From UHGV virus genome UHGV-0095853: 35,246 nucleotides of DNA; one strand, 5' to 3'. Each line of letters starts with the position of its first letter. Positions within the stretch are counted from its first letter, which is position 1. The notes below the pieces were generated by a model that was not told the DNA's origin, made no database searches, and saw nothing but the letters and a program-made list of their open reading frames with translations. The stretch is from a virus. Both the position numbers and the translations under genes were made by a program. Below are positions 1,020-34,954 of the stretch, piece after piece.

Positions 1020-1692
1020 AGAGCACCCCCTTATTCGCTTCGAAAACTGCCTTTGCGAATCCATGTGGAGTAGCACTTCGGAAATTAGCCCTGTCAGGCC
1101 CTGGTGGCGCGGCATGGATTCTGTTATCTGGCTTGCCTAATGATTCGTCCATTAGGGCATCAGGCATGACAAAGCCCTGGCCGCTCCAGAGGCATGTTTT
1201 TTTGGTGTAGTTATCTTCCTGACAATATGCAGTGAAGAAGTAAGGGTGAAAGATGTGATCTGGCTTACGCCAGAATGTCGATATTTTGCTGACCGGATTT
1301 TCAATCATGTACGGACAACCGATCATCTTTGCAATGTCATAACACTGCCAGACAACCTGCATTGCTTTGAACTGGAAAACCGGATCTTTATTAGCCTTGT
1401 CCGAAAACCAGCGCGCGCCGGAAACAGCCAGGTCAGTACACGGTGGGAACCCGGCCAGAAACACGATGCGCTGCAAATTCTTACGGAGAAAAGCGTATAC
1501 TTCATCGCTATCGATGATCGCACTAATACGCGTCAGAACGGCACCTGATTGCATCCGCTCGTCACTGGTCGATAAGTGCTGTGGATCGACGATAGCGGCA
1601 TCGACACCGTATTCCAGCCAGGGGGCAACCATTGCCCCCGTAAAATCACAAAGACTCACAACAAGCGGTCGGTTATTATCGTTCTGCTTCAC
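1012..1692 (-). CDS. Short DNA (cytosine-5)-methyltransferase-like protein (226 aa), tentative
   Basis: GFPPC (motif IV-like PC dipeptide) and ENPV (motif VI-like); GTG start at 1692 with GGAGG 10 nt upstream; translationally coupled to dam; no obvious target-recognition domain. Confidence 0.5.
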
Positions 1693-2581
1693 CGCCAATG
1701 GCCTCCACCAGCGCGTTAAACAGTGCAGATAATTCGCCCGTAAAGAGCACGAAATCAGCATCAAATCGTTGTGCTACATCCTCCCGGTCGATATCGTCGT
1801 TCTGGTCATAGAGATCATCACAGAATGTCAGGGCTTTGATACTCATATCATCGTTGACTCTGAACGACGCACGGTCCATCCAGTTAATTGCAACGGTCGT
1901 AGCTACTTTCCCCGCCTCAATGTGAGACATAATCTCGTCGGACTGTAGATCAACTTTGTTGCAGCGAACGGCACCACCATTATCGAGCAGACCCTTTAAT
2001 GTGGCGTCTTCACCTGCTGTAAATCCGGCAGGGAAGCCGCTTTTAAACCACTCGGTCATTGTAATTTCCAGCGGTTCGCGTGGTGTGAATGGAATGACAG
2101 GCAGGCTGCCGAGCGACTTTCGCAATAAAGCCAGCTGGTCCTCTGCCTTTTTGGCGCTGCTTGCCTCAACGAATACCAGATGGTTGCTGCGGTCGATCAG
2201 GATTTTGGCGAGTGATTTTCTCGTGAACGCGCGAGGCAAAAGTGAATGCAGGACTTCATCTTTAAGACTGTCTCTTTCCGTTTTCTTCAGCTTGCGGGCT
2301 TGCTCTTCTTCGAGTTTCAGGACTTTTTTCTGCAACTCTTCCTTGAGCACCTGCGAGGGGAGAATTTTTTCTTCTCGCTTATGCTGTATTAGCAGAAAAC
2401 CCTGGTATTCATGGGTGAGGTTGTCACCAAGAACAGGTGTCCAACCGACTTTAGCTGTGTCCTGAGAACCGCAAGGAGTAAACACGAATTTGCTAAGAGC
2501 ATCGGATACTTCTGCGGCACTCCAGTTAACTTCACGTGAAAGACGATAGATGAAGATGTTTTTGAAAGCGACTGATCTCAT
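1676..2581 (-). CDS. rdgC: Recombination-associated protein RdgC homologue (P1 HrdC-like)
   Basis: Full-length collinearity with E. coli RdgC ([58 protein letters not shown]). Confidence 0.85.
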
Positions 2582-2587
2582 GTTTCA

Positions 2588-2631
2588 CCAATTGTGTTAG
2601 AAAATTCTATTCAATTATCTAACACAATTGG
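2588..2631. promoter_or_regulatory. Perfect 14-bp inverted repeat (CCAATTGTGTTAGA / TCTAACACAATTGG, 16-bp spacer) ending 7 nt before the rdgC start codon
   Basis: Read directly; arms carry the recurrent TGTGTTAGA operator core; not followed by a U-run so not a terminator. Confidence 0.5.
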
Positions 2632-11354: not shown

Positions 11355-11371
11355 AAATGTTAGAAAACTAA
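11355..11371 (+). promoter_or_regulatory. Single operator-like site AAATGTTAGAAAACTAA at the 3' end of ref
   Basis: Near-identical to the site 25 nt upstream of gene 28613..29650. Confidence 0.35.
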
Positions 11372-11946
11372 TTTATCAATTCAATCGCCATCTGATACAA
11401 CGCCATTTCATCGGCATTGTGCCGCATGAAATCTGCTTTTCCGCCTATTTTTCCGTCAGCATGAACAGGGACCAGCCAGGGATATTGTTCTCGGACCTCG
11501 GCTGGCGCTGCGTACTGGTGGTGCCATTTACACAAAGGGAGGACATATTTATGCGCGTTCTCTGCCGTTCTCCCGAAGATATGGTGCAGGGATACCACTG
11601 GGCTATGTTGCCCGTGAATATGGCAGGCAATGCAGGGGAGAGTACCGATAGCGGTCTGTATCCGGCGTTCATCGGCTGTGAGTGATCTTCCTTTCAGGCC
11701 GCGTGACGTGCGTGTTTTTTTGGACGGAGCTGATACAGCTTTATCTTTTCTCCGCTGTTCATATTGCTTTGCTTTTTCAATTTTCTTTTGCCGATATTCA
11801 GGCGATGCGGCTTTTTCTCTCGCTCGCTGCTGCTGGCGTTGAGCTTGTTGAAGGCGCTTTGCCCTTTGTTCCTCTCGCCAGGCCGGGTCAGCCAATTTTT
11901 GCATGGCTTTTTGTCTCTGTTTCTCCCAATAACTCTGTTTCTGCAT
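11368..11946 (-). CDS. ref: Ref-like HNH endonuclease (P1 recombination enhancement function family)
   Basis: About 80-aa highly charged, probably disordered N-terminus then Cys/His-rich core (CIACHIHG...HHIFGR...CKWHH); divergent promoter carries operator pair. Confidence 0.6.
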   Translation of the reverse strand: MQKQSYWEKQRQKAMQKLADPAWREEQRAKRLQQAQRQQQRAREKAASPEYRQKKIEKAKQYEQRRKDKAVSAPSKKTRTSRGLKGRSLTADERRIQTAIGTLPCIACHIHGQHSPVVSLHHIFGRTAENAHKYVLPLCKWHHQYAAPAEVREQYPWLVPVHADGKIGGKADFMRHNADEMALYQMAIELIN

Positions 11947-11990: not shown

Positions 11991-12031
11991 AAATGGTTAG
12001 ATATTCAAAATTGATTTTCTAACACAAAACA
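11991..12031. promoter_or_regulatory. Inverted operator pair (GTTAGA-N17-TCTAAC) in the divergent ref / DUF4406 promoter region
   Basis: GGTTAGATA at 11995-12003 and TTTTCTAACAC at 12015-12025, followed by a TAATAT -10-like hexamer. Confidence 0.45.
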
Positions 12032-14511: not shown

Positions 14512-14783
14512 ATATCGACACCACGATAACGATCGATACGGCTCTAAATACCGGTCTGGCACTTCTCGGTTGGTTTTACATCATGTTCAGTGCGGGGAAG
14601 TGGGCGGCTTCTGTTTTTCTAAAACAGTGGGGAAAGCGCCGCAAACAGGAAAAACGCCAGAAAGCGTTGGAGGCGTTCTATGACGCATTTGAACTTAGCC
14701 GCATTGAGCCAGGCACAACAGCCAAGATAGCGACAAAAGGCGACCTGATGATAGTGATGTTCAGACAGGAGAAAACCAAATGA
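14508..14783 (+). CDS. Hypothetical small membrane protein (91 aa)
   Basis: One hydrophobic helix (LALLGWFYIMFSAG) followed by basic stretch. Confidence 0.45.
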   Translation: MNIDTTITIDTALNTGLALLGWFYIMFSAGKWAASVFLKQWGKRRKQEKRQKALEAFYDAFELSRIEPGTTAKIATKGDLMIVMFRQEKTK

Positions 14784-16021: not shown

Positions 16022-16063
16022 AAATGTGTTAGAACATTGATTTTAGTTTTCTAACATATTATT
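16022..16063. promoter_or_regulatory. Inverted operator pair (GTTAGA-N15-TCTAAC) upstream of gene 16099
   Basis: TGTGTTAGAAC at 16025-16035 and TTTTCTAACATA at 16047-16058, then TATTAT. Confidence 0.45.
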
Positions 16064-16098: not shown

Positions 16099-17094
16099 AT
16101 GAGTGCAATAATCACACCTCATTTCGTAAACGGAGCTGGTGTGGCTGTCTTTCCGGTAGACAAGCCCACCAGTAACTACATTGGCGTAGGTCGCCGTTTC
16201 ATTATCTCCCCACTTCCGCGTGAACAGGCTGAAAACACGCCAGATGGCGTAGTGGATCTGAATTATTCGCTGGTTGCCAACCAGTCTCTGAAATCGTTTT
16301 TTCAAAGCGAGCGCGTATTTAACGCGTTGGGCGGTGAAGATTCGCTTGTTCATTGGGTAAGTTCCAATATCCACGATTGCCAGGCGCACGATAAGCGCGA
16401 TTGCAGCCACCAGCTAACCACTCATTTCTATAACGGCTCTGCCGTTCGCCTGTGCTGGAAGCATGATGCGGAATACATGATGAAGGGGTACAGCAAGCTG
16501 GACGACCAGTTATCCCTGAATCGTGCCAACTGGGTTATGAACTGGGCTGCGAGCGAGTTAAAACTACCGCCAGAACGCGATCTGAGCATGGTTGAACTCA
16601 CTTTTTGGGCCATTCGCCGGAATCTGAAAGATGAGCTGCCAGATGAAGCCGGTCGCATTGCATTTTGTCAGCCAAAAACTGAAATCCCTACCGGTACGCT
16701 GAAAGAATCAGATATCACCTGGGAGCACAGTACCCGCGAGCTGGTGGACATAACCGCAGAGCAGATCGTCAACCTGTCTGTAGATGAGGATTCCGGCCTG
16801 CTTTATATGCGCCGACCAAAAGCGGTCCTCGGTAAAAGCCCGGCTTATCTCCGGTTTGTGGTTTCTCGTCCGTGCATCGGATGCGGTGGCAAAGTTAACC
16901 ACCCGTTCATGTACCGCGCCCGCTCGTTAAACGAACACGACCGCTGGGCTGTTCCTCTTTGCGATGACTGCGCCAGAAGCGCAGAACACGATGTCCGGGC
17001 ATGGGAAAAAGCACATGGCATACGCCTTTATGTAGTCGCTAACCAGCTTTTCGACTTCGCCATCGAGCGCGGAGTGATCACGTTTAATAACTGA
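16099..17094 (+). CDS. Phage protein of unknown function with C-terminal Cys/His-rich zinc-binding-like motif (possibly DUF968-like)
   Basis: PCIGCGG...HD...CDDCARSAEHD motif at C-terminus. Confidence 0.55.
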   Translation: MSAIITPHFVNGAGVAVFPVDKPTSNYIGVGRRFIISPLPREQAENTPDGVVDLNYSLVANQSLKSFFQSERVFNALGGEDSLVHWVSSNIHDCQAHDKRDCSHQLTTHFYNGSAVRLCWKHDAEYMMKGYSKLDDQLSLNRANWVMNWAASELKLPPERDLSMVELTFWAIRRNLKDELPDEAGRIAFCQPKTEIPTGTLKESDITWEHSTRELVDITAEQIVNLSVDEDSGLLYMRRPKAVLGKSPAYLRFVVSRPCIGCGGKVNHPFMYRARSLNEHDRWAVPLCDDCARSAEHDVRAWEKAHGIRLYVVANQLFDFAIERGVITFNN

Positions 17095-25816: not shown

Positions 25817-26311
25817 TTAAAACTTTGCGTACTGAAGCGGTGTACGCTTGATTTCAACGCGGCCTTCCGATGTGCTACCAAAGCCACCAGCACCACGCTC
25901 CGTTTCGTTGAGTTCCTCAACCTCGACTAGTGAGACTTGTTCAACACGCTCAAAAATTCCTTGCATGACAGCCATTCCAGGCTTGAGACAAACGCCTTCC
26001 CCGCCGGGATCAGTAATCAGTTTTGCCATGATTTCGCCGCGATAATCGGAGTCGATAATTCCTACGCAGTTAGCCAGGCGAGTATGTTTTTTGCAGCCCA
26101 ATCCTGATCGCGGATAGAGTTTCAGACACCAGCCTGGCGGGATCTCCATAGCCAGTCCGGTATACACCCACCAGCTTGAGGAAATTGCACCATTGCTATC
26201 GACGCATGGTTTTATTTCAACAGCCTCAAAATCCATCGCCGCCGATCCGGAGGTGGCATAAGCTGGAAGTTTTGCTGCCGGATGTAGGCGTTTCACTTTT
26301 ACGTAAATCAT
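25817..26311 (-). CDS. dut: dUTP diphosphatase (dUTPase)
   Basis: AYATSGSAAMD, PRSGLG, GIIDSDYRGEI, ERGAGGFGSTS motifs. Confidence 0.85.
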   Translation of the reverse strand: MIYVKVKRLHPAAKLPAYATSGSAAMDFEAVEIKPCVDSNGAISSSWWVYTGLAMEIPPGWCLKLYPRSGLGCKKHTRLANCVGIIDSDYRGEIMAKLITDPGGEGVCLKPGMAVMQGIFERVEQVSLVEVEELNETERGAGGFGSTSEGRVEIKRTPLQYAKF

Positions 26312-26784
26312 TGTTTTTTAGCTCTCTGCGTGAAGGTGTAAACCCGACGTTTGATATGTGGAACGGTAGGAACAGGAAGACAGGAACTTTCAATAACTCC
26401 TTGCTCCTCCAGCGATCGCACCGCCCGCAAGAACTGCGACGTGTCGCCGCCAAACTGGCGGGCATAGGTGCTGCCGTTATGAAGTATTTGAGCTATTACC
26501 CGAGCTTTTGTCTGGCTGTCACGATATGCGAATAGCCGCACGGCCTCTTCTGGCGCAATCGCTAACTGATAGCCTTTCCCGGCACGGTGTCGAATGAATC
26601 CATGCGCCAGTAGGTTTTTGAGTTCGTTACGAGTGCGAACAGATCCGTAATCCAGGAAGTGTGGATTGATAACGACTGGCTTAAACCATTCCGTAGGTGC
26701 TTTAGCTAATAGAGCTAACAGCTTCCCGGATAATTCTGGATAGGAAGACGGGTAACAATTCAGAGATGGGTAATAAGTTTTCAC
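26308..26784 (-). CDS. Hypothetical protein, possible winged-helix DNA-binding protein
   Basis: GTG start overlapping upstream stop; two wHTH-like segments. Confidence 0.45.
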   Translation of the reverse strand: MKTYYPSLNCYPSSYPELSGKLLALLAKAPTEWFKPVVINPHFLDYGSVRTRNELKNLLAHGFIRHRAGKGYQLAIAPEEAVRLFAYRDSQTKARVIAQILHNGSTYARQFGGDTSQFLRAVRSLEEQGVIESSCLPVPTVPHIKRRVYTFTQRAKKQ

Positions 26785-27125
26785 CGACGCCCCCTTGCAG
26801 GATATCGACCGGCATTAGTATCCGGTGCAATAAAGCCGGTAGTGGGGCGAGTGAAAGCGAGATTAATCTTCTCGACCATAGTGCGATAATTTTCCTGATA
26901 GTGGGCCAGGAGTTTTTCGGCGGCAATGATGGTTACTTTCCGGACGTAGCTTTCTGCTTCCTCCAGATTTCGCCAGTTTTTTTCGAGGGTAAACACAGGG
27001 ACGGCCTCAAGCCCGGTCATGATGCCGAACACAACGACAGCATGACTGTTCTTAACACCAGCGGCGAAGGTTACGGTGTAACCATCCACCTTGAAGCGTC
27101 TTGATTCCGTGATTTGACTCTGCAA
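26781..27125 (-). CDS. Hypothetical protein (114 aa)
   Basis: TTG start with AGGAGG 6 nt upstream; first gene after the operator at 27180-27196. Confidence 0.45.
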   Translation of the reverse strand: MQSQITESRRFKVDGYTVTFAAGVKNSHAVVVFGIMTGLEAVPVFTLEKNWRNLEEAESYVRKVTIIAAEKLLAHYQENYRTMVEKINLAFTRPTTGFIAPDTNAGRYPARGRR

Positions 27126-27179
27126 AGCACCCTCCTAAATAGGCGAGGGTACTTTACAGCAAAGGCGTTAATCTAAAAA

Positions 27180-27196
27180 GATGTGTTAGAAATTTA
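27180..27196. promoter_or_regulatory. Single operator-like site GATGTGTTAGAAATTTA between the recombinase stop and the dut operon
   Basis: Matches the recurrent TGTGTTAGAAA core. Confidence 0.4.
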
Positions 27197-27198
27197 AT

Positions 27199-28227
27199 TT
27201 ACGAATCCATCAGGCGGCTATTAGCCCCCACAGACACGCCGCCACGGCGAAGATACCGCATAAGTGTTTCCGGTTTCTTCCAGGTTCCTTCCTGCATGAT
27301 CTCCACCATAGACACCTGCTTTTCAGCCATATCGATAGCGGCCCCGACACGAGCACTATGCCCGGTCCACGTCCGGTATCTCCCTTTGTTTGGCGTGGCA
27401 TCTCTTTTATTCAGCAACACCCAGGCGTCGCTGAATATTTTCTCCATTGCAGGTGCAGTAAGGGGAGTTGTCGTAATCCTGGCCTTATTGCTACGGTGTA
27501 TCGGCGGGAACAGCACCGCGTCAGGATGTTCACGAAGCCCGGAAACATCCAGCCAGTCATTCAGCACTGCGGTAGTGCGACGGGAAAGCACCTTATCAAG
27601 CCCGGCGGCGGTCGTTATTGTCTTCGTGTGTGAAATATGTAGCGTGACAGTGTCACCTGTTTGGTCCAGATCTCCTACACGAATACGCGAGATTTCAGAC
27701 ATTCGCATCAGCGTATTGTATGCAACGAAGAGGAAAGCCCGGTTACGCAGGTCCACCAGCCGTTCTGACCTGGACAACAGGACGTCGAGCAGTTTCAGAT
27801 CGTCCCACCGCAGCGGTATAGCCTGGCCTGTTCGTTCGCCTTTTTCCGTTGCCGCTTCGCGCCGAATGCGCCGCATAGCCAGAGAAATACTTTTATCATC
27901 CGAAAGTGGCGGAAGGCCACAATGCGAAAGCAGCATGTTAAGCATGGCGTAGTGCTTATCAATGGTGGTCGAAGCCAGATCAGCATCATGCAGCTGAAGA
28001 AAATACTCGCGGGCCATCTCTGGTGAGATCGGGAACCAGGCGAGCTGGCGAGCGTGGCACCATCGCGCCCAGGAGTGAAACACTAACCGGAGATCGCGCA
28101 AAGTATTCGGCGCGTAAGCCCCCTGGTCATTCATGAACCGCATAAAGTTTTCTGCGGCCTCCTGGTACTCTTTGCCAATGTTGCGCAGAAAACCACCGGA
28201 GCTGCCAGAGATAATTAATTCACTCAT
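27199..28227 (-). CDS. dre: Cre/Dre-family tyrosine site-specific recombinase
   Basis: Collinear with P1 Cre (about 40 percent identity by eye); catalytic R (YNTLMRMSEISRIRV), H-x-x-R (GHSARVG), W and Y (TWKKPETLMRY) conserved; adjacent rox-like site. Confidence 0.85.
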   Translation of the reverse strand: MSELIISGSSGGFLRNIGKEYQEAAENFMRFMNDQGAYAPNTLRDLRLVFHSWARWCHARQLAWFPISPEMAREYFLQLHDADLASTTIDKHYAMLNMLLSHCGLPPLSDDKSISLAMRRIRREAATEKGERTGQAIPLRWDDLKLLDVLLSRSERLVDLRNRAFLFVAYNTLMRMSEISRIRVGDLDQTGDTVTLHISHTKTITTAAGLDKVLSRRTTAVLNDWLDVSGLREHPDAVLFPPIHRSNKARITTTPLTAPAMEKIFSDAWVLLNKRDATPNKGRYRTWTGHSARVGAAIDMAEKQVSMVEIMQEGTWKKPETLMRYLRRGGVSVGANSRLMDS

Positions 28228-28379
28228 GAAACTATTTAACCTCTATATACAGATGACGCTACGCGAAAAATATAAAAATGACAGGGTAGCTATAAGTTAA
28301 TTTTCAAAATTCAAGCCTTTGATTCGAGGCACGTATTTTTAGTGATGTCAACACTGATCATCTACCCATGATTATAGTC

Positions 28380-28411
28380 TAACTTTAAATAATACTAATT
28401 ATCTAAAGTTA
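28380..28411. other. rox/lox-like recombination site: 14-bp inverted repeats around a 4-bp spacer
   Basis: TAACTTTAAATAAT-ACTA-ATTATCTAAAGTTA; arms differ at one position; about 150 bp upstream of the recombinase start; resembles published rox as recalled and shares the TAACTT core of loxP arms. Confidence 0.6.
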
Positions 28412-28581
28412 GAAACTTAGGAATTTTTTTCCTTTCCGCGTAGATGGGCAATGCATTGCTGGCGTGGGCTTTAAGTTATGCCTGGCAGTTTTTAAGCAGA
28501 ATTTTCTAAATTGGATGATAAAAAAATGCATCTTGATCCTTTACTCACCCTGTTATTCGGCATAGATTTGTCATAGTAATT

Positions 28582-28598
28582 TTATGTTAGAAAACTAA
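28582..28598 (+). promoter_or_regulatory. Operator-like site TTATGTTAGAAAACTAA about 25 nt upstream of gene 28613
   Basis: Near-identical to the site at 11355-11371. Confidence 0.4.
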
Positions 28599-28612
28599 AT
28601 CGAGTAGGAATA

Positions 28613-29650
28613 ATGAGTAAGAAGTCGATCGAGAAAGAGTACAAACGGTTCCTGCAAACCGCTGAACGGTGGAAAGAGCTGGTGGTCGCAAACTCTGTTT
28701 TCCATGATACCAGTTATGCCGGCGAGGAATTCCGCCATGTTGCACTAACACATGATCAGAATGTGCTAGAAGAAGCTGAAAAGTGCCTCACAGAATGGAA
28801 AGCCTTTGTTGACTTGTGCCGTAACGCTGACGGCAAAGCGTCTAACATTGTTGAGTCTGTATATTCTCCGATCCCATTCATTATCGAGGACACAAATCAA
28901 AGCACGCATATTGTTGTGCAAAGCGCGACCACCACCCGCTCATTTACGCGCGAAAATCTGCTCAAAAAATATGATGCAATTATAAAGAAAAGCCTGAAAA
29001 ACAAGATATTTTCGCAGATTGTTGGTGCGCTTGAAGAAGAGCGCCGTTTTTTCGCATCAGAACCTGAAGGGGAAGTTTACCGGGCGCGCAAAGATGGATA
29101 CACAGATGTAGTGCTTACAACAAACATTGAAGGCAGCAATGCTCTGTCACGATTCAGGGTAGGCGCACACGGAGCCTTAGTGTTCGCAAAACTTCCTAAC
29201 ACCACAGTGCCCGTTGTTAATAATGTCGGCGAACGTCGCAGCATTACTATTTATTCTGGGGTTGAGTCGATACCTTGCGGCCTGCTTGGTGACTTTAGTC
29301 TCTATCGCGTTCGCGATCTGGAGAAACACCAACCAAGCTATGTTGCGAAGTCATACATCTTGCGAAACATCGACATCCGCAATGAGAGCTTAAAGAACAA
29401 ATCAGCCAAAATGCTTGAGGAAGCCGATCCGGCTATTCGCCATATCATTGAGCGTAAAATACAGACAGCACGCGAAGCGATGGCGCGACTGAATAAAATG
29501 GATCTGGAGTTGTTAGACGTAATGATGACATCCGGAGATGACCTGACAGGCATAAAACTGACAGACGCGCGGAAAAGATACGGTAAAACCATAGAAGAAC
29601 GTTACGGGTTCACTTTCTCCCAAACACAGCACGCCGCTAAACTCTGGTAA
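28613..29650 (+). CDS. Hypothetical protein (345 aa) at the c1-equivalent position; positional candidate for the immunity repressor
   Basis: Convergent with pacB and divergent from the recombinase, as c1 is in P1; operator-like site directly upstream; no sequence-level confirmation. Confidence 0.5.
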   Translation: MSKKSIEKEYKRFLQTAERWKELVVANSVFHDTSYAGEEFRHVALTHDQNVLEEAEKCLTEWKAFVDLCRNADGKASNIVESVYSPIPFIIEDTNQSTHIVVQSATTTRSFTRENLLKKYDAIIKKSLKNKIFSQIVGALEEERRFFASEPEGEVYRARKDGYTDVVLTTNIEGSNALSRFRVGAHGALVFAKLPNTTVPVVNNVGERRSITIYSGVESIPCGLLGDFSLYRVRDLEKHQPSYVAKSYILRNIDIRNESLKNKSAKMLEEADPAIRHIIERKIQTAREAMARLNKMDLELLDVMMTSGDDLTGIKLTDARKRYGKTIEERYGFTFSQTQHAAKLW

Positions 29651-29654
29651 TCAC

Positions 29655-29683
29655 AAGCCCCGCATTGCCGGGGCTTTATATAT
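29655..29683 (+). terminator. Terminator-like hairpin after gene 28613..29650
   Basis: Stem aagccccg / cggggctt with loop cattgc, then TATATAT. Confidence 0.45.
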
Positions 29684-31184
29684 CCAGATCTGGCATTTCC
29701 ACATCTGCAAGAACCTGATCGCGGAAGGTAGCCATTTCAGCGCCGATATCTTCATTAGCAGGAACATAGTCCACCAGCATTGTAAAGCAGTAGGTATCCC
29801 ATCGGTCAGGTGATTTGATGTTCAGCTTTTGCCGCATGTGCTCCTTGCGCATCATCGCCATCTTCCCTTCTTCATTAAGTAAAAAGGGGATTTTTGACGC
29901 TTGCTCTGCCGTTTTAGGGTCACTGTCTATTCGCATACGACCTGACTTTATGGCATCACGAGCCATAATATTTGCGTAGGCACGCTGGTTAACAAAACGC
30001 TCCTTGTCTTTGTTCGAAAACATGGGTTTCCCCCACCGAATCCGTACCGGATTAGCCCCACGGCGCACCAGCTGCGCACAGGTATCTGAACCAAAACCGT
30101 CTGCGTCAACCGCGATTGTAATATTCGGGTATTTATCCGGCGTGCATTCGTTGTATATAAAGTCAGCAAAAGCCAGCGGGTCCATAGTCCCTGGCATTTC
30201 CATTACCTTAAAGTTAACAACACGCCGCTTTTCCCGGTGACCAGACACTTTACAGATATTAAGAACTGACTTGTCTCGCCCGTTACCAACGTCAGCAGTA
30301 GCCACCCATCCCCAGTTTTTCTCCAACAACACCTTGCGCCGCGCAGCGCGATCGCATTCATCACGACCAAGCAAATAGCCGTTAATCTCCCGAGGAAACT
30401 GACCAAGAACCTTGACCATGTACTCAATAGAATCGCGCCCGCCATATTCCAGGAGTTTCTGCCTGATGAATTGTGGTGTGACGAACGGTGATTCTTCTGA
30501 GTTAAGAACAATTGCTGTCCAGATCCCTTTCGGGTTGTCTGGGGTTTTAGCTTGAGAATGGTGCGAATCGTAGAAATAACCACTTGGCCTTGTTGGCTGG
30601 GATAGCATCAACATTCGGTTATCTTCTTCAGTCAGAGCGCCAGTCATTACGCCGATCGCTTTATCAGATATACCTGATGCTTCATCCAGAATTAGAAGCA
30701 AATGTGCCGCGTGCTCCCCCGCCAGAGCTTCTTCGTTACCGAGTCGATAGCCTTTGCAGAGAACTTCCCAGATCCCCTTTCGAGAGCGTTCATAAAACAT
30801 GGTGTCAGACAGGACAAAATAGGTCTGTAACCACCCATGACGCTTAACGGCATTCGCCCAATACTGTTTAACGTATTTGAATACACCTGTCTTAACCTGA
30901 CCTATTTTGTTAGCAACAATGATGACACGGGCATCGGGGAACAGAATCAAATAAATCAGCAACAACATAGCCGTTAGCGACGATTTCCCTGTACCGTGAC
31001 CAGAGGTAACAGTGGTTCTGCTCCCTTTTTGCTGTACGGACTGGATAATCTCCTGCTGCTGGTGGGAGGGAAACATCCCGAATATATCAACAACAGCCTG
31101 GGTAAAGTTGTAGCGGTATTTGATTACCATATCGCGCCAGCGTGGATCGCTGGTGACGCATTTAATCTTGCGCCCACCAGCCAT
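29676..31184 (-). CDS. pacB: Terminase large subunit (PacB-like)
   Basis: Walker A TSGHGTGKSS, Walker B LLLILDEA; 502 aa; directly downstream of the small-subunit gene with 1-nt overlap. Confidence 0.8.
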   Translation of the reverse strand: MAGGRKIKCVTSDPRWRDMVIKYRYNFTQAVVDIFGMFPSHQQQEIIQSVQQKGSRTTVTSGHGTGKSSLTAMLLLIYLILFPDARVIIVANKIGQVKTGVFKYVKQYWANAVKRHGWLQTYFVLSDTMFYERSRKGIWEVLCKGYRLGNEEALAGEHAAHLLLILDEASGISDKAIGVMTGALTEEDNRMLMLSQPTRPSGYFYDSHHSQAKTPDNPKGIWTAIVLNSEESPFVTPQFIRQKLLEYGGRDSIEYMVKVLGQFPREINGYLLGRDECDRAARRKVLLEKNWGWVATADVGNGRDKSVLNICKVSGHREKRRVVNFKVMEMPGTMDPLAFADFIYNECTPDKYPNITIAVDADGFGSDTCAQLVRRGANPVRIRWGKPMFSNKDKERFVNQRAYANIMARDAIKSGRMRIDSDPKTAEQASKIPFLLNEEGKMAMMRKEHMRQKLNIKSPDRWDTYCFTMLVDYVPANEDIGAEMATFRDQVLADVEMPDLDI

Positions 31185-32548
31185 TAGTCATCCTCCGGCG
31201 GTTCTATCGCAATATCATCATCTCCGGCGTCATACCCTGCATCTGATGCATCATAATCACCGTAAATTTCAGCCGTTGCCGAAGGGTCAATGTCCAACTC
31301 TTCATCGTTGGCCTCGAATTCCCCAGCCTTACGCTCGCCATTGTGGTCGTAATCTCCGCACCCCAGATCTTCAACAATGGTTGCCACATCCGCCCGGCGC
31401 TCTGCCAGCCATTGCGGATGGTTAGCCTGAAGCGATGCAAACTCCTTCGCTTCTTTGTCCAGCTGTTCATCATCAACATCATTGATGTCAGAAACTGGAG
31501 GTTCGAGAAGAGTGATAGCTTTCGCCGCGCGCGCCGCGAGGATAGCCGGGACACTGACACCCTGACGCTCGATGTATTCAGCAACACCGATATCGTCCAG
31601 CTCCTCGCGCTCACGCATACGTATAGCGGCGGCGATAACTCTGGCTGCGCGTGCGTCAGCGCCAATGCGATATTCAATCTCTTTGCCACGCTGTTCGGCC
31701 TGTAGGCGTGCTAATTCGAGTTTTTCTCTGGCCTCGGCCTCTCTGAATGCTTGCTGGCGAGCACCCTGACGAAGTTTTTCATCACCCTGTCGCAGCTTTT
31801 GTTCGGACTGATATATCGCTGCCAACCTACTGATAAAATCGTTCATGTAGTAGGCCGCGTCACTGATTAGACCGAGAAGTCGCTGCCCAGGGTGCATTCC
31901 TTCTGGCTGTTCATCACCCAGGGCGTCTATCTCCGCCTGTAGGCGTTCGGCCTCCTGATCAACAATGCTTTGGTACTGAAGTGCGCGTTCTTGCGCCATT
32001 TGAATTGCTAACCGCAGGTGCTCTTCTGCGCCGTTCTTCATCATGTCGCGAGCCACACTCGTAGTGGGCAACGTGGCACGCTGCACAGCACCGCCAGGGA
32101 TCATTGCTGAAGATCCCTCGATTTTTGAGGCGCATTTATCTTCGGTGGGGATCATTTTCGCCATTTTTTCGCGCAATGATCTCCTGACAGATTCTTTTAT
32201 CTCATTGTTATTATTGTCGTTATTTTTATGATCCGAAGTTTTCTTTCTCGGCATGCTCCGGAAAGAACTTCCGCTCTGTGAATTGTCAGTTTCTGTAAAT
32301 TTTGTTGTTTCTGTACCCTCTTCTGGCCTTTTTTTTGCTCTTCCTGCCCGTTTTTTTTCAGGTGATTTGGTGCTTTTTTTTGTAGTCTTCACCTGCGACC
32401 GCACCTCATTTTTTTTCATATTGAGATGCTTTCTGGCGGTATTGAAGCTAAGGTCGTGTTGCTCGCAGTATTCCTTTACGGTGATCCCTTTTTCTTCACG
32501 CAACGCTATAAATTTGGCGCGGTGCTCTTCCCAATTAACAAGGCTCAT
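31184..32548 (-). CDS. pacA: Terminase small subunit (PacA-like)
   Basis: N-terminal HTH-like segment (ITVKEYCEQHDLSFNTARKHL); position upstream of pacB; contains GATC-hexamer cluster; long acidic C-terminus. Confidence 0.7.
   Translation of the reverse strand: MSLVNWEEHRAKFIALREEKGITVKEYCEQHDLSFNTARKHLNMKKNEVRSQVKTTKKSTKSPEKKRAGRAKKRPEEGTETTKFTETDNSQSGSSFRSMPRKKTSDHKNNDNNNNEIKESVRRSLREKMAKMIPTEDKCASKIEGSSAMIPGGAVQRATLPTTSVARDMMKNGAEEHLRLAIQMAQERALQYQSIVDQEAERLQAEIDALGDEQPEGMHPGQRLLGLISDAAYYMNDFISRLAAIYQSEQKLRQGDEKLRQGARQQAFREAEAREKLELARLQAEQRGKEIEYRIGADARAARVIAAAIRMREREELDDIGVAEYIERQGVSVPAILAARAAKAITLLEPPVSDINDVDDEQLDKEAKEFASLQANHPQWLAERRADVATIVEDLGCGDYDHNGERKAGEFEANDEELDIDPSATAEIYGDYDASDAGYDAGDDDIAIEPPEDD
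32099..32233. other. Candidate pac (packaging initiation) site: five GATC-containing hexamers within 135 bp inside pacA
   Basis: GATC at 32099, 32112, 32150, 32178, 32230 with AT-rich tracts between; about 0.5 expected by chance. Confidence 0.4.
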
Positions 32549-32937
32549 AAAGCAACACCACGCTTTTTAACTGCGGCATTCCACAGCTTATTAGTCATGT
32601 CCACCAGCTTGCGCTGCTCTTGTCGCGCCAGTTCTGCAGACTTCCGGCTACAGTTTTTAACCAGCAAACTGCCGTATTCAGGGGTGCGCCCGCGCACCTT
32701 GAACTGATATCCGTTCAGGCCATGCAACCAGTATTTCCGTGGGTAAACACGATCATCAAGCTCACAAATAGCTCGGCTTGACCGCACAAAATGCCGAATG
32801 ATGTTGGTTACACTTACGCGTGAAACATGAAGGTGAGGATATTTTTCTTTAGCTAGAGTGGTAATTTCGGTGACTGTCAGATAGCAGTCAGCCCTAATCA
32901 TGATATCCGCAATTTCTGCGCTGCTGATATGCTCCAT
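32545..32937 (-). CDS. lpa: Lpa-like late promoter activator (positional call)
   Basis: 130-aa protein immediately upstream of pacA with ATGA overlap, as lpa is in P1; operator pair upstream; GGGGGA before ATG. Confidence 0.4.
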   Translation of the reverse strand: MEHISSAEIADIMIRADCYLTVTEITTLAKEKYPHLHVSRVSVTNIIRHFVRSSRAICELDDRVYPRKYWLHGLNGYQFKVRGRTPEYGSLLVKNCSRKSAELARQEQRKLVDMTNKLWNAAVKKRGVAL

Positions 32938-33010
32938 TAATCCCCCGGGCAGGAAATGACCGAGGGGATGATAATGAGAATGTTATTTCTGTATAGACTG
33001 GCAAAAAGTT

Positions 33011-33055
33011 TGTTATATTAGAAAATTAATTCCATTCATCTAACACTACCAGCGA
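33011..33055. promoter_or_regulatory. Inverted operator pair (TTAGA-N16-TCTAAC) upstream of the lpa-like gene
   Basis: ATTAGAAAATTAA at 33015-33028 and TCTAACAC at 33039-33046. Confidence 0.4.
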
Positions 33056-33438
33056 GATAAGCGAACGACGTGTTTTACCTTAGCGATCCACTTACCACGT
33101 GAGTTATTAATTACGGCCTGCGCCACCTTTAAGCTGACTTCAAAATCAGCCTTACGACCATCAGAATCCACCAGCGTTGCACCGTCTATTTCCGGCAGGC
33201 TTAAATAATCCTGTTCTACCTCTAATGGCATTGACGGCTCTCTGAATGGTGTCAATTGCCGAGCTTTCCAGATAAAGCGAACTCTCAATCCCCTATAAGC
33301 CATTACCATGTAGCCTGTTATCGTGCTCTTATGGCCTGCATCAGTACGCGCAGCATTACACGATACAATCTTACAGGTGACGATATTCCACTCCACATTG
33401 GAGACTTCGTGAATGCTTAATTTTGTTGTCTCGTACAT
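33046..33438 (-). CDS. Hypothetical protein (130 aa)
   Basis: ATG overlapping upstream stop. Confidence 0.5.
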   Translation of the reverse strand: MYETTKLSIHEVSNVEWNIVTCKIVSCNAARTDAGHKSTITGYMVMAYRGLRVRFIWKARQLTPFREPSMPLEVEQDYLSLPEIDGATLVDSDGRKADFEVSLKVAQAVINNSRGKWIAKVKHVVRLSRW

Positions 33439-34466: not shown

Positions 34467-34542
34467 TGGTGGCCCCTACCGGACTTGAACCGGTGACCGT
34501 GCGATTATGAGTCGCCAGCTCTAACCACTGAGCTAAAGGGCC
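34467..34542 (-). tRNA. tRNA with CAU anticodon, closest to tRNA-Ile2 (ileX/ileY type, lysidine-modified)
   Basis: GGCCCTTTAGCTCAGTGGTTAGAGCTGGCGACTCATAATCGCACGGTCACCGGTTCAAGTCCGGTAGGGGCCACCA; about 10 differences from E. coli ileX as recalled. Confidence 0.8.
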
Positions 34543-34680: not shown

Positions 34681-34954
34681 CACTTGCAGCTACCTTTTAA
34701 GACAAAACGCCATTGCTGTTAGATTGCGGTGCCGGGTGCCTCCCGGTGACGTTAACCAGTTAACAATTAACGCCGGGATGTTTGACTTAACTATTGAGGA
34801 AAATTGTTTTAACTGTTCCGCGTGCGCTTAGCCGCATTCACCGCAATGGTAAGAGCACTTGGCTGGCTGGGCGGCGATGACGCCTGTACGCATTTGGTGA
34901 TCCGGTTCTGCTTCCGGCATTCGCTTAATTAGCCAAATACTCTTAACGTTGCGC

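Follow-up and report, generated by a model that had tools for sequence, protein, structure and literature searches.

Experiments have established the C1 protein of phage P1 as a repressor of transcription (PMC8546580, PMC4713147). Its operators, 22 in number, are asymmetric and 17 bp long; the genes under its control include repL and lpa (PMC8546580) and also ref, ban, ssb, dmt and kilA (PMC4713147). The P1 annotation places operators before lpa (Olpa) and before c1 itself (Oc1). The c1 gene of phage D6 has been labelled as coding for a repressor in GenBank since 2004: the immC record AY753669 describes it as 'phage repressor protein; similar to the C1 repressor of phage P1', and in the complete D6 genome the orthologue is called 'prophage repressor'. 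In our literature search, which left out Sauer & McDermott 2004 and Gilcrease & Casjens 2018, we found no experiment on a D6-type C1.

Here we analysed a stretch of viral DNA of 35,246 nucleotides (UHGV virus genome UHGV-0095853), referred to below as the window. Positions 27000-31500 were 90.3% identical to AY753669 over the full length, and the window is a D6-like phage-plasmid. We put at roughly 0.88 the probability that its c1 gene encodes a C1-type master repressor of the lytic functions of this phage-plasmid, acting through dispersed asymmetric operators.

The c1 gene and its place in the P1/P7 C1 family

A sequence-only reading of the window had proposed that a single 345-aa gene, lying in the slot that c1 occupies in P1, may encode the immunity repressor. 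It had described an operator-like site before the gene and no coi-like ORF, and it had expected the product, if it were the repressor, to be larger than P1 C1 and to recognise a different operator. Each of these points agreed with what we found. The ORF is located between the Dre-like recombinase gene and the rox-like site on one side and the convergent pacB on the other (Table 1), it starts with an ATG preceded by AGGA, and the operator-like site TATGTTAGAAAA stands shortly before this codon. The span that had been flagged (28413-29650), with 28413 as the first base past the rox-like site, takes in both the regulatory region and the gene. The gene order dre-rox-c1-pacB-pacA-lpa is the same as in D6, with c1 on the plus strand and dre, pacB and pacA on the minus strand, as expected for an immC location. 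In the interval between rox and c1, the plus strand contained only ORFs of 21-33 aa. P1 has the antirepressor Coi, whose gene directly precedes c1, as well as ImcA and ImcB, whereas tblastn searches with these three proteins against the window and the complete D6 genome gave no homologue better than E about 0.5. The GC-rich hairpin between c1 and pacB is a probable bidirectional terminator; a simple terminator scan did not flag it.

Table 1. Positions in the window of the c1 gene, its neighbours, the candidate operators and other features.
Feature	Position	Strand	Basis or remarks
c1 gene, predicted 345-aa D6-type C1 repressor, P1/P7 C1 family	28613..29650	+	ORF, homology, dN/dS
Dre-like tyrosine recombinase gene, divergent from c1	27199..28227	-	context gene, left
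rox-like 32-bp palindromic recombination site, variant of D6 rox	28380..28411	.	left border of c1 regulatory region
pacB, terminase subunit gene, convergent with c1	29676..31184	-	context gene, right
pacA	31184..32548	-	beyond pacB
GC-rich hairpin between c1 and pacB	29655..29676	.	-21.2 kcal/mol, z = -3.2
Proximal operator-like site TATGTTAGAAAA, 25-mer context AATTTTATGTTAGAAAACTAAATCG	28583..28594	+	28.0 bits; 19 nt before c1 ATG
Distal degenerate inverted half-site CAATTTAGAAAA	28500..28511	-	read from sequence; 83 bp upstream of proximal site
Candidate bivalent operator directly upstream of hrdC-dmt-like operon (1676..2581, -)	2593..2626	2593+/2615-	D6 equivalent 64114/64136
Operator-like site just downstream of ref	11356..11367	+	25.0 bits; D6 equivalent 75978
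Candidate bivalent operator upstream of ref (11368..11946, -)	11993..12026	weak 11993+, strong 12015-	D6 counterpart 76637, upstream of annotated ref
Candidate bivalent operator upstream of pdcB-like gene (16099..17094, +)	16025..16058	16025+/16047-	D6 equivalent 80707/80729
Operator-like site between dre 3' end and next gene (26781..27125, -)	27182..27193	+	D6 equivalent 89946
Candidate operator pair upstream of lpa (32545..32937, -)	33014..33047	33014+ (21.7 bits), weak 33036-	D6 equivalent 4630
tRNA gene	34470-34542	-	Rfam
Match to sRNA family STnc100	34725-34845	-	Rfam, exactly at gathering score (47 bits)

The window protein is an orthologue of D6 C1 (AAV84948.1 / ASR76322.1; AY753669, MF356679), with which it shares 90% identity, 97% similarity and the length of 345 aa. 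At the DNA level the gene is a diverged allele of D6 c1, 83.7% identical. The comparison of the two gave dN/dS of 0.056 at dS of 0.98, and the ORF is thus a real gene under strong purifying selection. Among plasmids of E. coli, Salmonella and Shigella, 118 records matched the c1 segment, and the identity reached at least 99% in 15; the gene was intact and of full length in 110 of the 118, and many of the matching records call it 'phage repressor protein'. The gene is therefore the already-annotated C1 of the D6 group, and its identification as such is correct but ordinary, since it repeats what is written in the D6 and plasmid records. The only parts that may be new are the operator motif, the 22-bp pairing of sites, the conserved C-terminal module and the possible Tus-like fold, all described below.

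The similarity to C1 on which the sequence-only reading hinged was found by BLASTP, in which the window protein and P1 C1 were 20% identical over 239 aa (E = 8e-8). Both proteins matched phrog_1678 over the full length, with values of 4.7e-159 for the window protein and 2.6e-140 for P1 C1. A profile built from ten D6-type sequences and run against 1.84 billion representatives retrieved only 108 clusters at E <=0.001, and among them was P0065, the representative of the P1 C1 cluster, 53% identical to P1 C1 (E = 3.2e-13). The label PF27008 (Phage_P7_repressor_C1) is carried by relatives that are 45-96% identical to the window protein, and the assignment to this Pfam family rests on these precomputed annotations of relatives. 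A scan of the window protein against our local copy of Pfam-A gave no match even at E <=10, because this copy lacks the PF27008 model, which is evidently newer.

Two length classes make up the family: proteins of about 250-290 aa (P1 C1-like) and proteins of about 345-380 aa (D6 C1-like). The homologous core covers about residues 1-240 of the window protein. The surplus of the window protein over P1 C1, which has 283 aa, is a C-terminal extension of ~65 aa at about residues 275-345; it is well conserved among proteins of the long class, whereas P1 C1 and the 273-aa relative P0012 lack it. The residues R41, W62, P88, R159 and G187, invariant or nearly invariant across the family, are all present in the window protein. 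Repressors of the lambda CI type (HTH and S24 peptidase) share with C1 the role of a master repressor maintaining lysogeny, but no HTH or Peptidase_S24 domain was detected in the window protein. The fold predicted for it is of the alpha/beta type and has long beta-hairpins as well as a helical hairpin at the C-terminus, and its putative operators are asymmetric, whereas those of lambda CI are palindromic.

Candidate operators and the predicted regulon

The sites that we regard as candidate operators have the core TGTGTTAGAAAA, which is embedded in an A/T-rich consensus of about 25 bp. With at most one mismatch, this core was present at eight sites in the window against 0.25 expected, a number reached in none of 100 shuffles, and a weight-matrix scan added the sites at 11356 and 33014 together with the weak partners at 11993 and 33036. 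The placement of the motif is non-random: all nine sites of at least 21 bits fall between genes, in a window that is about 89% coding. The motif occurs in both orientations, and four head-to-head pairs (upstream of the hrdC-dmt-like operon, ref, the pdcB-like gene and lpa) have an identical offset of 22 bp, about two helical turns. A site at 14615 (TGTTTTAGAAAA), located inside a coding GC-rich stretch and below the weight-matrix threshold, was discarded as a chance match. A full-text literature search for the operator core returned unrelated papers only.

The expectation of an operator different from that of P1 was borne out. The P1 consensus ATTGCTCTAATAAATTT had no match in the window at up to three mismatches, and the local sites are aTTGTGTTAGAAAAtta-like, with the core given above; the window protein is thus a member of the P1/P7 C1 family with a different specificity. 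Yet the D6-type 17-mer, when written as ttTGTGTTAGAAAAtta, agreed with the P1 consensus at about 10 of 17 positions in a hand count, and the asymmetric design is the same. As in P1, the sites are dispersed, lie before lpa, ref, dmt, repL and c1 and include bivalent pairs, and autoregulation is likely. The pair before lpa stands in the same place as Olpa of P1. The paired sites are head-to-head in both systems, but the offset is 22 bp in the window and 11 bp in the bivalent Oc1ab of P1. This difference points to another geometry of binding at paired sites, to which the C-terminal extension may be related.

The site proximal to c1 was identical in the window, in D6 and in pKFS-D08_2, although the c1 DNA is only 84% identical to that of D6, and we presume it to be autoregulatory. 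Farther upstream, the core TTTTCTAAA of the distal half-site was conserved within an otherwise variable stretch. A strict scan for sigma-70 promoters between rox and c1 found none with 9/12 or more matching positions. In the absence of a stronger match, it is uncertain where the operator lies with respect to the c1 promoter; if the best candidate, TTTACT-N17-TAGATT with 8/12, is the promoter, transcription would start shortly upstream of the operator. We also noticed by eye a LexA-box-like stretch upstream of c1 (CTGT-N8-ATAG, 28551-28566), one mismatch from the consensus; it is less conserved in D6, where it reads CTGT-N8-ATAA, and it was rejected as unsupported.

The weight matrix built from window sites only was then run on the D6 genome, where it found 17 sites above 14 bits, compared with 0-3 (usually 1) in shuffled sequences. 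They were located before c1, lpa, repL (22465), the icd-antirepressor operon (21267), hrdC-dmt, ref and pdcB, and some adjoined structural genes, namely pmgS (10322) and the major capsid gene or orf52 (54208). Asymmetric sites are thus found before early or lytic genes and before c1, where C1 would be expected to sit. Three metagenomic or SRA contigs (L006, L007 and L010), whose C1 proteins are 53%, 50% and 45% identical to the window protein, keep the order dre-rox-c1-pacB-pacA-lpa. All three have the core GTTAGAAAA just before the c1 ATG and a full inverted copy 82-94 bp farther upstream, and L006 and L010 have the core also upstream of lpa. The motif is therefore conserved at the same gene fronts in relatives with C1 only 45-53% identical, and since it persists in these contigs, the operator specificity seems to be common to the D6 branch while C1 itself diverges. 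The specificity at the level of C1 differs from that of P1 and appears common to D6-type elements with C1 45-100% identical, which suggests that heteroimmunity among such elements, if any, lies elsewhere. For the annotation of D6-like phage-plasmids, the operator core is now explicit, and the predicted regulon resembles that of P1.

A more distant relative was noticed in L011, a 4-kb SRA contig, which encodes a 273-aa C1 relative (30% identical) in a recombinase-c1-terminase arrangement. It has a single CGTCTTAGAAAA-like site 93 bp upstream, and the contig holds too little sequence to define its operator.

The same motif could be a promoter element or the site of another factor such as Lpa or a host protein, with the gene still encoding a C1 homologue, one that would bind a different sequence. 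It contains -10-like hexamers (TAGAAA, GAAAAT) and overlaps weak promoter predictions, so that its conservation could partly reflect promoter function, and the D6 sites next to structural genes would also fit such a role. We consider this explanation improbable: the motif precedes c1 and lpa exactly where P1 has Oc1 and Olpa, it shares with the P1 operator both the asymmetry and about 10 of 17 positions, and the occurrence in both orientations and in head-to-head pairs at a fixed offset is unlike a promoter element. Moreover, 9-mer counts revealed no other prominent repeated motif except Chi. In these counts, Chi (GCTGGTGG) and its complement topped the lists in the window, L006 and L010, with, for example, 11 copies of GCTGGTGGA in the window.

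If the motif is the operator of C1, as we favour, we infer by analogy with P1 C1 that the protein binds the TGTGTTAGAAAA sites, singly or in pairs scattered over the genome, and that this binding represses transcription. The targets would be early or lytic promoter regions, those of lpa, ref, hrdC-dmt and the pdcB-like gene in the window and those of repL and icd-antirepressor in D6, and the site closest to the c1 ATG would serve autoregulation. Induction cannot run through Coi, because Coi is absent; the two icd-antirepressor modules annotated in D6 would be the obvious candidates for this step. Subunit pairing or partner binding are our guesses for the role of the C-terminal module.

The absence of Coi, ImcA and ImcB and the presence of an extra C-terminal module could also be read as signs of a decayed or repurposed C1, with immunity coming mainly from ImmI-type c4/icd/antirepressor modules or from another gene. 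The report on a D6-like plasmid, in which the corepressor Lxc was undetected and major differences in lysogeny control were suggested (PMC6799933), points in the same direction. However, the strong purifying selection on c1, its full length in nearly all matching plasmid records, the retention of all five family-wide residues and the conserved operator regulon argue for a working repressor, and decay or repurposing appears very improbable. The proposal that the gene may encode the immunity repressor is thus supported by homology to P1 C1 and orthology to D6 c1, from which repression and DNA binding would follow by analogy.

Predicted structure and possible resemblance to Tus

To our knowledge, no structure of a C1 family protein has been solved. 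We obtained two AlphaFold2 models of C1, one from 10 sequences (pLDDT 84.8) and one from 89 sequences (pLDDT 94.9, pTM 0.81), and both gave the same architecture. The modelled N-terminus begins with a long helix, followed by beta-hairpins that include the long strands 99-112 and 155-171. In both models residues 113-148 form paired helices and residues 233-307 a long helical hairpin, and three short helices lie at 316-342. This predicted fold may resemble that of E. coli Tus, the replication terminus site-binding protein (PDB 4xr0; PF05472), which we treat as a lead and not as a result. The fold of Tus consists of two alpha/beta domains joined by DNA-binding beta-strands, and Tus binds an asymmetric site as a monomer through these interdomain strands. 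In a 1988 characterisation, P1 C1 was reportedly also a monomer binding asymmetric operators, and the resemblance is functionally coherent because both proteins would act as monomers on asymmetric sites. The two differ in role, replication-fork barrier against repressor, and the C-terminal helical hairpin has no equivalent in Tus.

At the level of sequence, the evidence for a link to Tus was weak. The family HMM gave 1.9 bits on Tus, and hhalign aligned C1 86-195 with Tus 146-267 at 8% probability (P = 0.004), a comparison made with a shallow Tus profile, since the search for Tus homologues gave only close relatives (at least 81% identity) among the matches listed. The Pfam Ter family (PF05472) was touched by two of the 89 family members, with a best E of 0.012, and the window protein had no match to it. 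A sequence relationship between C1 and Tus does not seem credible, and the window protein does not belong to the Tus/Ter family by sequence. Neither the single protein nor the 89-sequence profile found a related entry among PDB sequences, Foldseek against viral predicted structures (BFVD) gave no match at E <=0.001, and our literature searches found no link of Tus with C1 or phage repressors.

We tentatively propose, at somewhat less than even odds, that the C1 family (P1, P7, D6 and about 100 sequence clusters) is Tus-like, and that a monomer clamps the asymmetric operator via interdomain beta-strands with R41 and R159, while the C-terminal module of the D6 branch replaces Coi/Lxc or pairs monomers at 22 bp. 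As far as we know, non-palindromic operators are unlike those of almost all other phage repressors; a clamp of this kind, if true, would explain their use by C1, and a Tus-like fold, if confirmed, would be the first structural rationale for the reading of asymmetric operators by C1.

The resemblance also raises the reading that a Tus-like C1 on oriented sites serves mainly as a polar barrier to replication forks or helicases and not as a transcriptional repressor. This is hardly conceivable: experiments established its homologue P1 C1 as a repressor of transcription (PMC8546580, PMC4713147), the sites are found in promoter regions instead of flanking an origin or terminus, and head-to-head pairs 22 bp apart would be senseless as a fork trap. 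Transcriptional repression thus stays the preferred role of the window protein.

The rox-like site, the mosaic boundary and other features of the window

The rox-like site of the window (TAACTTTAAATAATACTAATTATCTAAAGTTA) differs from D6 rox (TAACTTTAAATAATGCCAATTATTTAAAGTTA) in its central spacer, which is ACTA and not GCCA, and in one arm, where T is replaced by C. The D6 sequence was found unchanged in L006 and L007, and L010 has a third variant. Despite this variation of the site, the window recombinase is identical to D6 Dre at 341 of 342 residues.

When window positions 26000-33300 were compared with the D6 immC region (L001), the rox-like site stood out as a sharp mosaic boundary. To its left (dre side) the identity to D6 was 93-99.5%, and just to its right it was 69%; most of c1 was 78-86% identical, with 93% in its first 200 bp, and in pacB and pacA the identity returned to 87-96%. 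In this region c1 has diverged from D6 more than any other gene, with dS about 1. Such a boundary is consistent with recombination at rox, site-specific or homologous, in which flanks were exchanged. Near the end of the window, Rfam identified a tRNA gene and, in addition, a sequence matching the sRNA family STnc100 (Table 1), and this region corresponds to the tRNA cluster of D6.
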